A stretch of DNA of 64,000 nt from the NCBI GenBank assembly GCA_949299375.1, contig CASGAH010000001.1:4193-68192 (forward strand), written 5' to 3'. This DNA is from an uncultured Eubacteriales bacterium. Its GTDB lineage: Bacteria; Bacillota; Clostridia; Lachnospirales; Lachnospiraceae. Positions 46,578-50,113 of the stretch are shown here, one piece after another. The notes below the pieces were generated by a model. The model saw nothing but the letters and a program-made list of their open reading frames with translations, was not told the DNA's origin and ran no database searches. A program made the position numbers and the translations under genes. Each line of letters starts with the position of its first letter. Within the stretch, counting starts at the first letter, position 1.

Positions 46578-47331
46578 ATACCGATAGGTCAGCGTTTGAT
46601 GTCATCTCTGGCTTTTCCCCCGGTCCACACCGGACATGCACCTTTCAGCGCATCCGGCGTTCCCCCGATTTCTGCGTCTTTTCCTGCAAAAACCGGCTTG
46701 AGGTCATCCCTCCCTCTCCATTACAGAGATTTCACAGGTGCGGCCTCTGCTTTTTGGCATCCGTTCAGCGGCTTATTGTGCTTCGTCCGCTTACCGAGCG
46801 CACTCGGCCCGATGCCTTTCCCCGTACCAATCCATCCTATCTGTGCATTGATATCCTTAGGTGCCTGGCTCTGAGCCTGCGGGCCTGACAGCGCCTGTAA
46901 CGCTGTATGGTGTTTCATAACAAACATTTTTACTCCACCACACCCGCGGCGTGAACGAATCTCTGCCAATCCGTATGCACTCACGCCCGGTCCGTTTCCG
47001 GACCGTCTCTCTTTAGACTCTTTCCTTCGCCGGTTCGTCAGCTGCACAGCGCAGCATTCTCACCATAGATATGTTATAGACCCCCGGCATATCACCTCCC
47101 ATGCCCAAGCGCTCAGGTTTAGGGAAGTTTCTGCCGACTTTACCGAACTTCTGACTGCCGCATTGCTTTGCACAGCCAGTCGGAGAATCAGGGCGCGTGT
47201 TTCCGGGCGTTACCCCCTCATTCCACGCAGTCGGATGATTCGTTCTCCTTCCTTCTCTTTCCGAAACAGAATTTTCGGTTTTGTAAGGCAGTGCCGGCTC
47301 TTTGTTGATTTTAAGCCGGAACGGGTCGAAC
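46578..47331 (-). mobile_element. ORF-less group II intron 4 in dnaE (754 nt)
   Basis: 5' GUUCGACCCG directly after exon AAC AAA U. Domain V at 46627..46660 (ACGCCGGAU-GCGCU-GAAA-GGUGC-AU-GUCCGGUGU). Domain VI ACCGGGGG...CCU-A-UCGGU with a bulged A 8 nt from the end. 3' AU. Confidence 0.8.
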
Positions 47332-47568
47332 ATTTGTTGAATGCGTATTTCGCGAAGTCAATCATTTCATCAAAAATCGTCTGCGCCACCGTCTCCGGAA
47401 TTCCATTGGCAACGCAGCCCTTTACACCTTCCTCCTCATTTCCATATACGAAATTCCTTCGTTCCTTCTCCATAACGGAGCCTTTCTTTTTTGACATGGC
47501 TCTGCGAACCAGGTCGCTTCTCCCAAGGGTGTATCCGGCCAGATCGCGCACGATCTGCATAACCTGTT
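47332..47568 (-). CDS. dnaE: DnaE exon 4 of 5
   Basis: (G)AA CAG GTT ATG... = [29 protein letters not shown]...IDFAKYAFNK. Corresponds to track ORF 47210..47560. Confidence 0.85.
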
Positions 47569-48310
47569 ATGGTGATAGGTCAGCGTTTGATTTCTCTCCG
47601 GCTTTTCCCCCACCCCGCACCGTGCGTGCAGCTTTCACCGCACACGGCGCTCCATCGTCGTCGCCTTCGATAACTCCGGCGGCGGCGACTTGTGCCCATC
47701 CCTCCATCTCCATTACAGAGACTTCATCGGTTCGAACACTGCTTTTTTGCACCGGTTCAGCCGCTTATTGTTCTTCGTCCGCTTATCGCCCGACTCGTGC
47801 ACCGTCTCAGTCCCATTTTAGAACGTCGATGAGACAATACACGAGTCCGACAACCCGATACATTTCCGTGTTCCAATAATTCTATCCCTCCAGATATCCT
47901 TAGGTTCCTGCCAGCAGCCGTCGGCTGTCTTGTGCCTGTAACACAACATGGACTTTCATAACCAGGAATTTTACTCATCCACACCTTTGTATGCGGCTGC
48001 TTCTGTCGCAGGTTCGTCCGTCTTTTGACATTCTAACCATAGATATGTTATGGACCACCGGCATATCAAGCGCCCGATCCGGTTTGCCTTTTTTCGGATC
48101 GCAGCTCTCCTGTGCCGACTTCACCGAGCTTCACACGCTGCGGCTTTCGCCGTTTTGCGCATGTCGGAGTATTATGGAGTGTGTTTCTCATCCATTTTGG
48201 ATGTCTCTTGTCCGAGAAGGCGTTACCCTTTCATTCCACACTTCGAATTATTCGTTCAGATCCCGGTTGAAAAGATCTGCCCGGTCTTTTCAACCGGGAA
48301 CGCGTCGCAC
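47569..48310 (-). mobile_element. ORF-less group II intron 3 in dnaE (742 nt)
   Basis: 5' GUGCGACGCG. Domain V at 47617..47650 (GCGCCGUGU-GCGGU-GAAA-GCUGC-AC-GCACGGUGC). Domain VI GGUGGGGG...CCU-A-UCACC. 3' AU. Confidence 0.85.
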
Positions 48311-48418
48311 CCTGATATACAATACACCCATACGTAGGAGCAAGAATTGGCTCCAATTGAGGACATTCATACGTAATCGAAGATTTGTCATTCTTTCCCT
48401 TCAGGTATTTCGGAATAA
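48311..48418 (-). CDS. dnaE: DnaE exon 3 of 5 (108-nt micro-exon)
   Basis: Own translation: (T)TT ATT CCG... = [36 protein letters not shown](E). This supplies the conserved ...P.LEPIL..TYG..VYQEQVM segment missing between the neighbouring fragments. Confidence 0.8.
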
Positions 48419-49144
48419 ATAGCGATAGGTAACCCTTTGATGGAATCCTCGGGTTTTCCCCCGCTCCGCACCGTACGTGAGTCTTTCGAGCTCATACGGC
48501 GCTCCCCCTCTGCCGCCGCACCAGGCGATGCGCGGCAGCGGCTTGTGGCTGTTGCTCCATCCTCATTACAAGGACTTCTTCGCTCGTGCCACTGCTCTCC
48601 CTGTGACAAAGGACAGTTATAAAAATACTTTTCTTTCCTGCCCACTAGATCATCGAACATAAAGGTTCTCCCTATTCACAGCTTTCAACGTTCCGATCCT
48701 TCTTCCTTCTCATCTCATACTTAGGTGCTTCCTTTGAACTCTCATGCCTAACCGTGCCTGTAACACGGTATGGCGTTTCATTTCGACCAGGATTACTCCG
48801 CCACACATGATTTTCCTATGAAGTCCGTACATTCGGAAGTTCGTCAGCTCCCTTTGGGGAAGCATTCTCACCCTATATGAGCATCGACGCCCGCCCGATC
48901 CGTTCCCCCATCACACCCTCAGCACCCTTTCGCTCCCACAAAATGGCGCGCTTGATGGAGTCCGTTCAGACGACTTTACCGAGCTTATAACATCGGATGC
49001 TTTATCATCTCCTGCTATTCGGAGGTCTCAGCGCAAACCCTTCCAGGCGTTACCCTCTCATTTGGTTTGTTGAAAGATCAGTTCTCCGCAGTCGGATTCT
49101 CTCCCGCCTGCAGGTTGGGGGTTCTCCCCCAAAACGTTTCGCAC
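48419..49144 (-). mobile_element. ORF-less group II intron 2 in dnaE (726 nt)
   Basis: 5' GUGCGAAACG after exon ...AUG GAC U. Domain V at 48468..48502 (GCGCCGUAU-GAGCUC-GAAA-GACUC-AC-GUACGGUGC). Domain VI AGCGGGGG...CCU-A-UCGCU. 3' AU. Confidence 0.85.
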
Positions 49145-49400
49145 AGTCCATTGGTCCCGGCCTGTACAGGGAAATTCCCGCAATGACATCTTCCAGATTT
49201 TCCGGTTTCAGTTCCTTCATGAAGTTTTTCATTCCGGAACTTTCCAATTGAAAGACCCCCTCTGTTCGTCCGGTCCCCAGAGAGGCAAATACTGCACTGT
49301 CATTCATTTCCATTTTGTCCATGTCAATCACAATCCCTCGGTTGTGCTTCACATTGGCGACCGCATTCTGAATGACCGTGAGTGTGCGGAGTCCAAGAAA
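49145..49400 (-). CDS. dnaE: DnaE exon 2 of 5
   Basis: TTT CTT GGA CTC... = FLGLRTLTVIQNAV...AGISLYRPGPMD. Part of track ORF 49050..49490. Confidence 0.85.
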
Positions 49401-50113
49401 ATAGGAATAGGTAAGGATCTTCCTCAGCCATTGCCTGTCCGGCGTCCTTTTCCCCTCCTTCACACCGTGCGTGCGGCTTTCACCGCACACGGCGTTCCGC
49501 CAAACACATCGCCCGCACTCGCTTTGTTCTGGCTATGGGCCTTTGCTCCAGGGGAATTGCCCCCCTTCTTCACTACTACGCCCTGCTGCCGCCCGGATTC
49601 ACAGGCCATTTCCTGCCTGTTGGAGGTTTCGACGCTTAAACATCTTGGCACCCTCCTCCGGGTTTCAATTGTTCCGTTGGTTCTATCCTTTCATTATAAC
49701 AACTTAGCTGCCGCCTTTGGCCCGCAGGCCATTCTTTCACCCTCTGCTGAATGGATTCAGAACTCCTGCTGCATTTCCAGCAGAAGCCGCAGCCGCAATG
49801 GACAATGCGTCTGCCGCGGCCCAAATCCTTGTTGGATTTGTCTCTGCGGGTCTTTCCCACGGCGGTTCCCGGTGAGTCAGCCTATTGTTTTTCAGAGGAC
49901 CCCCGGCGATTGTCTCGCCGACTTTACCGAGCTTCATACCGTTTTGCTTTAAGCCAAAACCGCATGTCGGAGGATCAGGGAGTGGGGCATCAGCATTTGC
50001 TCCGTAGACGGAATTGCACCGTCCTCATCAAACCAACCGTTAAACAGGTTTCTTTCCCTGTTCCGCTGACTTGTTTCCGTTTCCAGAGTGTTTCGCCAGC
50101 GAACAATTCGCAC
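49401..50113 (-). mobile_element. ORF-less group II intron 1 in dnaE (713 nt)
   Basis: 5' GUGCGAAUUG directly after ...LGLLKMD (GAC at 50116..50114). Domain V at 49462..49495 (ACGCCGUGU-GCGGU-GAAA-GCCGC-AC-GCACGGUGU). Domain VI GGAGGGG...CCU-A-UUCC. 3' AU. Confidence 0.85.

Follow-up and report, generated by a model that had tools for sequence, protein, structure and literature searches.

The middle of an intact dnaE gene—which encodes a DnaE-type DNA polymerase III alpha and lies on the minus strand of a 64-kb stretch of contig CASGAH010000001.1 from an uncultured Eubacteriales bacterium (64,000 nucleotides, hereafter called the “window”)—most probably carries four bacterial class B group II introns, I1-I4, which lack an open reading frame (ORF) and each stem from a separate mobile lineage that encoded a reverse transcriptase (RT). 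Here we report the structure of this gene, the class membership of the introns, the covariation within their domains V and VI, their exon-binding sites (EBS), their descent from forms with an intron-encoded protein (IEP), and the selection on I4. The coordinates of all features are collected in Table 1.

The split dnaE gene

When the five exons of dnaE are joined, they form a single ORF of 1165 amino acids, starting from the ATG at position 51778, which is preceded by the purine-rich, Shine-Dalgarno-like run AAAGGAAAGGAAG. The spliced DnaE aligns with Thermus aquaticus (Taq) DnaE (2hpi) with an E-value of 6e-278, and the alignment is free of gaps at every junction. The DnaE of an intronless relative (L125; the loci collected in this study are cited by L numbers) is likewise colinear over all four junctions. 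By alignment, Asp555 of the spliced DnaE corresponds to D618 of Taq DnaE in the motif LLKMDFLGLRTLT, and we take D618 to be the third catalytic aspartate. Unspliced read-through from an exon into an intron meets a stop codon within 26-54 codons. This exact dnaE allele is rare, as only two contigs bear it among ~15 billion proteins.

Intron limits and domain structure

The intron limits were set from the exon reading frame, and the region from the 3′ end of I4 to the 5′ end of I1 spans exactly 46578-50113, in agreement with the original prediction made from the DNA alone. We scanned the whole 64 kb with Rfam at the gathering thresholds, and obtained exactly four group-II-D1D4-5 (RF02004) matches of 53-122 bits, all on the minus strand. 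Moreover, four domain V/VI (RF00029) matches, scoring 54-62 bits against a gathering score of 40, lie on the minus strand and nowhere else in the 64 kb, and their 3′ ends are located at 49401, 48419, 47569, and 46578. With four matches to each family above the gathering thresholds, the elements are real and structurally intact group II introns, as had been proposed. An nhmmer profile built from I1-I4 detects no copies in the window beyond those four.

I1-I3 begin with GUGCG and I4 begins with GUUCG; all four introns end with AU, and the intron tail has the form ACCUAUNNNNAU. The GUUCG start is common to I4 (47331) and its orthologue in a related dnaE (L088 1093, described below), where the near-universal form is GUGYG, and this suggests that GUUCG is a tolerated, inherited deviation at intron position 3.

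Two sequence blocks recur among the introns. The 16-mer AAGCUCGGUAAAGUCG, which was predicted to be shared by all four, does occur in each of them, but its exact form is confined to I1 (at 49919) and I2 (at 48971), with one mismatch each in I3 (at 48116) and I4 (at 47135). The four observed matches compare to 0.02 expected. The second block, AAUGARRGGGUAACGCC, is found in I2-I4 only, as first noted, with three matches as compared to zero expected. Domain V also proved to be as originally described: in all four introns, positions 2-4 of its 34-35 nt read CGC, position 3 lies in a G-U wobble, and the element has a GAAA loop as well as a bulge of 2 nt.

The basal helices of domain VI vary in sequence and retain their pairing, as they read AGGAG/UUCCU in I1, AGCGG/UCGCU in I2, GGUGG/UCACC in I3, and ACCGG/UCGGU in I4. 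The bulged A is located at position -8 in I1-I4 and in all 25 aligned relatives ending in AU, and at -9 in the Bacillus anthracis intron B.a.I2, which has an extra A. Since the four introns alone make a thin alignment, 22 relatives were added to them, for a covariation alignment of 26 sequences. A contig search with a 16-mer containing two degenerate positions returned mostly chance matches; about 35 of the 120 loci are real relatives according to the nhmmer profile. Over domains V and VI, 94.2% of the cells in the alignment are paired, and 19 of the 30 pairs are changed on both sides. None of 500 shuffles reached the observed values, and slid partners are 30-48% paired. In the domain V helix, which comprises 14 pairs, 96.4% of the cells are paired and nine pairs have two-sided changes, while the pairs 41/97 to 44/94 of the domain VI basal helix covary. 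Covariation thus strongly supports both domains, and the compensatory changes that the original prediction described around the A at -8 extend across the 26 sequences. Energy folding recovers the domain V/VI structure as well, with z-scores of -2.6 to -3.7.

Class assignment

To which class do these introns belong? McNeil and Zimmerly (PMC4024640) reported that essentially every bacterial class B intron has CGC in place of AGC and bears a double-stem insertion close to the 5′ end, and they named B.a.I2 as a class B intron. In our family, 25 of 26 members, with all four window introns among them, have the CGC triad, and all 26 have the G-U wobble. The minimum free energy fold of every intron has a pair of adjacent hairpins immediately after GUGCGANNCGUU, purely as an energy prediction in a region that aligns poorly. 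The nhmmer profile of I1-I4 matches B.a.I2 (pXO1) with E-values of 1.8e-16 in domains I-III and 2.8e-16 in domains V-VI, and matches the AGC-triad intron B.a.I1 with an E-value of 9e-4 only.

The proteins of the relatives lead to the same assignment. The window introns are without an IEP; their ORF-containing relatives, from Sporosarcina, Streptococcus suis, Lysinibacillus, and many metagenome-assembled genomes (MAGs) of Clostridia, encode IEPs of 618-666 amino acids with a YADD motif, which are 45-56% identical to the IEP of B.a.I2 and 27-31% identical to that of B.a.I1. The IEPs of other introns at the position of I3 in dnaE (site 3, see below) are 42-47% identical to the B.a.I2 IEP. Taking the family and site-3 IEPs together, the ranges are 42-56% for B.a.I2 and 27-32% for B.a.I1, as a measure of identity rather than of phylogeny. 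By these sequence criteria, I1-I4 are bacterial class B (IIB-like) group II introns. The class had been left unclear at first, and it is resolved by the CGC triad, the RNA match to B.a.I2, and the B.a.I2-like IEPs of the relatives.

Class C (IIC) introns have a ribozyme of ~400 nt, are located after a terminator or attC stem-loop, and use a 3-4-bp EBS1 with no EBS2. We rejected a class C reading of the CGC triad, as I1-I4 are 713-754 nt long, lie inside coding motifs, have a 6-nt EBS1, and match the D1D4-5 family of Rfam. The original prediction had taken CGC as a hint of class C, but CGC is the published hallmark of class B (PMC4024640), and the size, the insertion context, and the EBS1 length exclude class C.

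Among the described class B introns, B.a.I2 (Bacillus anthracis pXO1) and En.fm.I2 (Enterococcus faecium) resemble I1-I4 in the CGC triad and in the domain VI form GGGGGAAAA...ACCUAUNNNNAU, and domain VI of B.a.I2 shows the same ...CGGGGGAAAAG...ACCUAUCGA... form as I1-I4. The EBS3-type recognition of the 3′ exon adds to the class B likeness of I1-I4, and the two hairpins predicted near the 5′ end would do so as well. In contrast, B.a.I2 and En.fm.I2 are ~2.7-2.9 kb long and reside in plasmid or mobile-element genes, whereas I1-I4, at 713-754 nt and without any IEP, reside in an essential chromosomal gene. I1 also stands apart from both, as a member of a divergent sublineage whose EBS1 region is rearranged.

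Family members were also encountered outside the Firmicutes, on a 2.1-kb contig labelled Streptomyces sp. (L086), in Candidatus Thiovulum stygium (L110/L013), and in Fusobacteriaceae (L063). The short “Streptomyces” contig may be contamination.

Exon recognition

EBS1 was located by aligning 23 relatives with their 5′ exons. It comprises the 6 nt preceding UAUGAAA, within a loop whose closing stem covaries. Over 24 members, EBS1 forms a mean of 5.29 out of six pairs with its intron-binding site (IBS1) in the exon, as compared to 3.19 +/- 0.22 with shuffled exons, and the observed mean was reached in 0 of 2000 trials. In the window, EBS1 pairs with its own exon at 6/6 positions in I3 and I4, at 5/6 in I2, and at 6/6 in I1 when its lineage-specific upstream loop is used, and therefore each ribozyme appears to be tuned to its own site. 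The UUGUCCAUUG of the candidate EBS1 of I1 is conserved in the orthologue L123s1, where the exon ends with AUGGAU.

On the 3′ side, the base in the EBS3 column of the alignment is Watson-Crick complementary to the first base of the 3′ exon in 17 of the 20 members, and all four window introns are among these. From its sequence, this column represents the IIB-type recognition by a single EBS3-IBS3 pair.

Introns at the same dnaE sites in other genomes

Hereafter, the insertion positions of I1-I4 in dnaE are called sites 1-4. The closest DnaE homologue that we found, with 82% amino acid identity in exons 2-4, comes from a Lachnospiraceae MAG (L088), and its gene contains introns at sites 1 and 4, with none at sites 2 and 3. 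It is from this homologue that the sequence analysis placed the window's host among Lachnospiraceae-like Clostridia. The site-4 intron (L088 1093-2056, called L088b) is the orthologue of I4, as it has the same GUUCGACCCGUU start and a domain V identical to that of I4. L088b retains an RT remnant of 30-56 amino acids (E 5e-8), whereas I1-I4 retain none. The orthologue of I1 is the 3166-nt site-1 intron of L123 (6865-10030), which has a split IEP ORF and 75% column identity with I1. The L123/L124 species was seen on at least 21 contigs.

A scan of metagenomes with the site-3 junction pattern returned 56 loci, and in about 46 of these a dnaE gene carries an intron at precisely the position of I3; the encoded DnaE proteins are 35-77% identical to that of the window. 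These introns form a graded series in length, from 3.2-3.4 kb (maximum 3387 nt) through ~2.85 kb, 2160, 1738, 1674, 1299, and 1074 nt down to 731 nt. The largest ones encode intact B.a.I2-like IEPs of 648-652 amino acids, and the IEPs of the smaller ones are progressively truncated. One full-length example, with a class B IEP, is L142 3760-6610. Alleles with several introns are common among the fetched loci: sites 1 and 3 are occupied in L149 and L171, and sites 3 and 4 in L139 and L184, while an extra site near amino acids 393-403, together with sites 3 and 4, makes three interruptions per gene in L137, L159, and L178. None of the other dnaE loci fetched, which include 46 chosen for their site-3 intron, showed a counterpart of I2 at site 2.

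Several observations on these loci stand apart from the window introns. An insertion of ~750-1400 nt near amino acids 393-403 (counted from the ATG at 51778) occurs in L137, L156, L159, L166, and L178, and the window has none there. The site-1 intron of L123 contains two insertions of ~65-95 nt (~6924-7010 and ~7140-7234), absent from I1, which share the repeat GGTACAAAAGYGGCTAGAGCCCRCCTG...AAAGTAAG; from their sequence, they look like a small repeat element nested in domain I. L123 also carries, as does L124, a second IEP-encoding intron (10632-13366 in L123) with a 632-aa RT, located 6 nt downstream of site 4, after FNKSH plus 1 nt. This intron has a GUGUG start and an AGC triad, and the class B profile fails to recognise its domain I. 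Therefore, FNKSHA is a target of two intron lineages. In cyanobacteria, the split intein of DnaE presumably lies just before CFNKSH, ~3 codons upstream of site 4; if so, the motif at the end of exon 4 (47332-47345, ...YAFNK) would be a hot spot shared by inteins and introns.

We rejected L125-L128 and L130, found via short DnaE fragments, as intron-split dnaE genes, since they are frameshifted assemblies without introns. The read-through “FNKSH-VRRPMRLF” in P0022 was similarly rejected as a third insertion point, the assembly being frameshifted. In P0001, a 338-aa DnaE fragment from NCBI, an internal duplication of ~48 amino acids extends across the site-3 motif, and it may be an assembly artefact.

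Conservation of the intron RNA

I4 and L088b are 77% identical over 712 nt, as compared to 50% at the third positions of identical-amino-acid codons in the flanking exons. On this comparison, I4—the only intron tested—is under purifying selection. The GC content of the introns follows that of the host, with 54% vs 51% here and 40.6% vs 40.4% in L088, and we therefore argue for a long residence, with purifying selection on the RNA after the loss of the ORF.

Of the 153 positions that are invariant in 12 ORF-containing relatives, I2-I4 keep 134-141. I1 keeps 95, and its ORF-containing orthologue keeps 96. Since the latter keeps equally few, the divergence of I1 is a feature of its lineage rather than decay. 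Because EBS1 and EBS3 match the introns' own exons and I4 is better conserved than the synonymous sites, we predict that the introns are maintained, functional ribozymes. On the same grounds of sequence, the original view of functional sites, rather than decaying debris, is upheld.

Table 1. Window coordinates of the dnaE exons, the four introns, and their functional elements
Feature	Position	Strand	Description
dnaE	51778..45346	-	DnaE-type DNA polymerase III alpha; five exons, four group II introns
dnaE exon 1	50114..51778	-	ATG at 51778; last codon is Asp555 of LLKMD
dnaE exon 2	49145..49400	-	FLGLRTLT...YRPGPMD plus 1 nt
dnaE exon 3	48311..48418	-	108 nt; FIPKYLKG...GCIVYQ
dnaE exon 4	47332..47568	-	EQVMQIV...KYAFNK plus 1 nt
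dnaE exon 5	45346..46577	-	SHAACYAV... up to the stop codon
Expected exon-exon junction, I1			AAAAUGGAC|UUUCUUGG
Expected exon-exon junction, I2			AUGGACU|UUAUUCC
Expected exon-exon junction, I3			UAUCAGG|AACAGG
Expected exon-exon junction, I4			AACAAAU|CUCAUGC
Intron I1	50113-49401	-	713 nt; GUGCG...CCUAU; phase 0, directly after Asp555, LLKMD|FLGLRTLT; ORF-less class B, divergent sublineage
Intron I2	49144-48419	-	726 nt; GUGCG...CGCUAU; phase 1, one base into the Phe641 codon, PGPMD|FIP; ORF-less class B
Intron I3	48310-47569	-	742 nt; GUGCG...CACCAU; phase 1, one base into a Glu codon, VYQ|EQVMQI; ORF-less class B
Intron I4	47331-46578	-	754 nt; GUUCG...CGGUAU; phase 1, one base into a Ser codon, FNK|SHA; ORF-less class B
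I1 candidate EBS1	49798..49803	-	GUCCAU; in an 8-nt hairpin loop upstream of the canonical loop; 6/6 with exon AUGGAC
I1 canonical family EBS1 loop	49756-49763	-	GUUCUGAA; shrunken in this sublineage
I2 EBS1	48783..48788	-	GGUCGA; 5/6 with exon UGGACU, manual pairing
I3 EBS1	47961..47966	-	CCUGGU; 6/6 with exon AUCAGG
I3 candidate EBS2	47987-47992	-	AUACAA; pairs with UUGUAU at -12..-7
I4 EBS1	46920..46925	-	GUUUGU; 6/6 with exon ACAAAU
I1 EBS3	49716	-	A-U (EBS3 base, first 3′-exon base)
I2 EBS3	48734	-	A-U
I3 EBS3	47913	-	U-A
I4 EBS3	46871	-	G-C
I1 domain V	49462..49495	-	34 nt; ACGCCG..., CGC triad, GAAA loop
I2 domain V	48468..48502	-	35 nt; extra C beside the GAAA loop, also in ORF-containing L039 and L064
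I3 domain V	47617..47650	-	34 nt
I4 domain V	46627..46660	-	34 nt; identical to that of orthologue L088b
I1 domain VI	49403..49459	-	Long form, as in L088a and L123s1; branch A 49408
I2 domain VI	48421..48465	-	Branch A 48426
I3 domain VI	47571..47614	-	Branch A 47576
I4 domain VI	46580..46624	-	Branch A 46585

Proposed splicing mechanism and the maturase question

Homing and ORF loss: In the history that we propose, mobile class B lineages encoding an RT would have homed to conserved motifs of dnaE, namely the position after Asp555, PGPMD|F, VYQ|EQ, and FNK|SH. Each intron would then have lost its IEP by internal deletion, and become a splicing-only element. The dnaE transcript can yield DnaE only once all four introns have been removed from it.

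Splicing: First, each ribozyme would bind its own 5′ exon by the EBS1-IBS1 pairing, and the first base of the 3′ exon by the EBS3-IBS3 pair. Then, the A that bulges from domain VI at position -8 would attack the 5′ splice site, with the CGC-triad domain V supplying the catalytic metal site. Finally, the exons would be ligated and the lariat released.

Several points weigh against this picture. EBS1 of I2 pairs at 5/6 positions only, the EBS1 region of I1 is rearranged, and a search of the introns for a canonical EBS2 found none for I2 or I4. I4 begins with GUUCG instead of GUGYG, as does its orthologue. The selection argument presumes that I4 and L088b were inherited with their host genes, and the match in GC content makes a recent transfer unlikely. 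With identities of 43-65%, the four introns represent at least three divergent sublineages, and a single trans-acting maturase serving all of them is not guaranteed. The view covers 64 kb of the genome, and a trans-acting IEP or a second, intronless dnaE could lie beyond it. As for splicing in vivo, we infer it because the exon frame is intact and the ribozymes are conserved.

How would the introns be spliced after the loss of their IEPs? A tblastn search with 12 family IEPs returned no match better than E 0.23 across the whole 64-kb window and no credible match within the introns, which accords with the original statement that no intron ORF has RT or maturase features. For the maturase-binding stem of domain IVa, we compared the regions upstream of the IEP start codons with I1-I4, and this comparison revealed no clear homology. 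By analogy with the dnaN gene of Trichodesmium (see below), there is about an even chance that a class B IEP or maturase of another intron, located elsewhere in the genome, assists in trans. A trans-acting IEP is the likeliest helper on the base rate: according to PMC4424553, ORF-less bacterial introns are nearly always found in genomes with related IEP-encoding introns, with one independent case in 225 genomes.

It is possible, with a lower probability than help in trans, that the genome contains no group II IEP at all, and that the introns self-splice or use a host factor, as an organelle-like set in an essential gene. The lack of any RT or maturase in the 64 kb and of any IEP remnant in I1-I4 would fit such an account, as would the other dnaE alleles in which all of the introns are ORF-less or contain remnants only (772 and 731 nt in L171; 1077 and 963 nt in L139/L184), a state that recurs and persists. 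A precedent exists in C.te.I1 of Clostridium tetani, an ORF-less class B intron that, according to PMC4424553 and PMC4024640, shows robust self-splicing in vitro and resides in a genome without an IEP gene; splicing free of protein, or with help from a host factor, has been proposed for it. Moreover, the origin from at least three sublineages makes one shared maturase less likely. However, the base rate of one independent case in 225 genomes (PMC4424553) applies here as well, class B introns encoding IEPs are abundant in the related Clostridia, and only ~64 kb of the genome was examined. Taken to its full extent, this account would describe an organelle-like endpoint in a free-living bacterium: an essential replication gene with four introns that lack a maturase and stem from at least three lineages of class B, in an IEP-free genome, with splicing either autonomous or dependent on host factors, as the extreme case of a widespread class B colonisation of dnaE in gut Clostridia. 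We regard this complete version as somewhat more doubtful still.

Origin and integrity of the locus

Did the four introns spread within dnaE itself? In the original prediction, they were paralogues, and the shared AUGGAC hinted at local spread; in such a model, recent copies of one founder would have moved within dnaE with the help of shared IBS sequences. It is true that the introns belong to one class and have sequence blocks in common, that I3 and I4 are the closest pair within the window (63-66% identical), and that the target sites of I1 and I2 share AAUGGACUUU in the spliced sequence. However, I1 is 69-73% identical to the site-1 introns of L123, L149, and L171, as compared to 42-48% to I2-I4. 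I4 is 67-73% identical to foreign site-4 introns, and I3 is no further from foreign site-3 introns (62-70%) than it is from I4 (63%). I2 is 50-57% identical to all of the introns compared.

The AUGGAC hexamer does precede two introns, as had been observed, but not in the same register, since the junctions are offset by one base (AUGGAC|GUGCG in I1 and AUGGACU|GUGCG in I2). Moreover, I1 and I2, which share it, are among the least similar pairs (42-48%), and their EBS1 regions are organised differently. The hexamer is common to both sites because DnaE has two Met-Asp-Phe motifs, rather than because of a shared spread. The occupancy of the sites in other alleles—1 and 4 only in L088, 1 and 3, 3 and 4, or the extra site with 3 and 4 elsewhere—fits independent gains and losses. 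With same-site counterparts of I1, I3, and I4 in other genomes, local spread is mostly unsupported, and we consider it improbable. Judged from their sequences, the four introns are separate, site-specific class B lineages with independent ORF loss, and not recent local duplicates.

It is very unlikely that the insertions are dead, in the sense that dnaE is a pseudogene with decaying intron remnants and another polymerase gene serves replication. The absence of a maturase from the introns, the non-canonical GUUCG 5′ end of I4, the weaker EBS1 of I2, and the 64-kb extent of the view could be read in this way. In contrast, joining the exons yields a perfect ORF of 1165 amino acids that has every conserved DnaE motif, every catalytic RNA element is intact and covarying, I4 is much better conserved than the synonymous sites, and the same sites are occupied in dozens of dnaE genes with intact exons. 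A chimera, with introns mis-joined into dnaE in a metagenome-type assembly such as that of the window, can practically be dismissed, because the same arrangement is present in two separate records (NCBI and ENA, the latter being ERZ17292903 k87_36443352), the junctions are base-precise and preserve the frame, EBS1 and EBS3 of each intron match its own flanks, and independent assemblies of other organisms have introns at the same sites.

Apart from dnaE, the window contains a T-box leader (RF00230, 99.3 bits) at 58708-59000 on the minus strand, directly upstream of an aminotransferase gene. T-box leaders usually target aminoacyl-tRNA synthetase genes. The gene behind this one (ORF 57352-58566, minus strand) encodes a class I/II aminotransferase (PF00155, E 2.5e-50), and not an aminoacyl-tRNA synthetase.

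Known analogues and significance

The element class is already known and the arrangement has a known analogue, so that the locus is unusual for a bacterium without being a new kind of element. The analogue is the dnaN gene of Trichodesmium erythraeum, in which four group II introns lacking an ORF undergo splicing by the RIR-intron maturase (Meng et al. 2005, according to PMC12584367 and PMC4424553). As in dnaE here, the expression of dnaN must depend on the splicing of all of its introns. The Trichodesmium introns are cyanobacterial, of the CL type, and closely related, and their trans-acting maturase was shown experimentally. In contrast, dnaE has a Clostridia-type host and class B introns that represent three or more divergent lineages, and the 64 kb yielded no maturase.

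A second comparison is offered by C.te.I1 (PMC4024640), which, like I1-I4, derives from a mobile class B intron and has no ORF, in a Clostridia genome; its triad is CGC, and its domain IV retains no trace of an IEP. C.te.I1 stands alone at a surface-layer protein locus, where it is spliced alternatively to several downstream copies of domains V/VI; its 5′ splice site is shifted, its delta-IBS3 pairing is IIA-like, and it prefers hydrolysis. In contrast, I1-I4 are four conventional introns in a housekeeping gene; their splice sites are canonical, their branch sites are intact, and they have EBS3-IBS3 pairs. The splicing-only introns of organelles (plant mitochondria and chloroplasts) also resemble I1-I4, in that they are ORF-less and immobile, reside in essential genes, are inherited vertically, and have a host-like base composition. 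However, the organellar ribozymes are often degenerate and depend on many nuclear-encoded factors, whereas those of I1-I4 look intact.

In the literature searched, which mostly left subscription journals outside its scope and is not proof of novelty, we found no description of group II introns in dnaE of Firmicutes. Within that literature, dnaE of gut-type Clostridia appears to be undescribed as a recurrent home of class B introns, with few conserved sites, all stages of ORF loss, and up to four introns per gene. According to reviews (PMC4424553), bacterial group II introns mostly avoid housekeeping genes, and their ORF-less forms are rare and short-lived. The locus departs from this description, since an essential polymerase gene contains four ORF-less introns, and I4, the one tested, is under purifying selection by our comparison. 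Furthermore, dozens of dnaE genes in public metagenomes carry class B introns at three of these sites, and every stage of ORF loss is represented among them. This pattern runs against the expectation, expressed in PMC4424553, that few ORF-less bacterial introns have been overlooked.

In practice, gene callers fragment a dnaE that is split by introns, which affects the annotation of MAGs and the completeness estimates based on marker genes. The locus is also a test bed for two alternatives, one maturase for divergent introns or class B ribozymes that need no maturase. Above all, the dnaE introns provide a natural series for the passage from a mobile retroelement to a fixed, splicing-only intron, a step that is usually discussed for organelles and the origin of spliceosomal introns alone.

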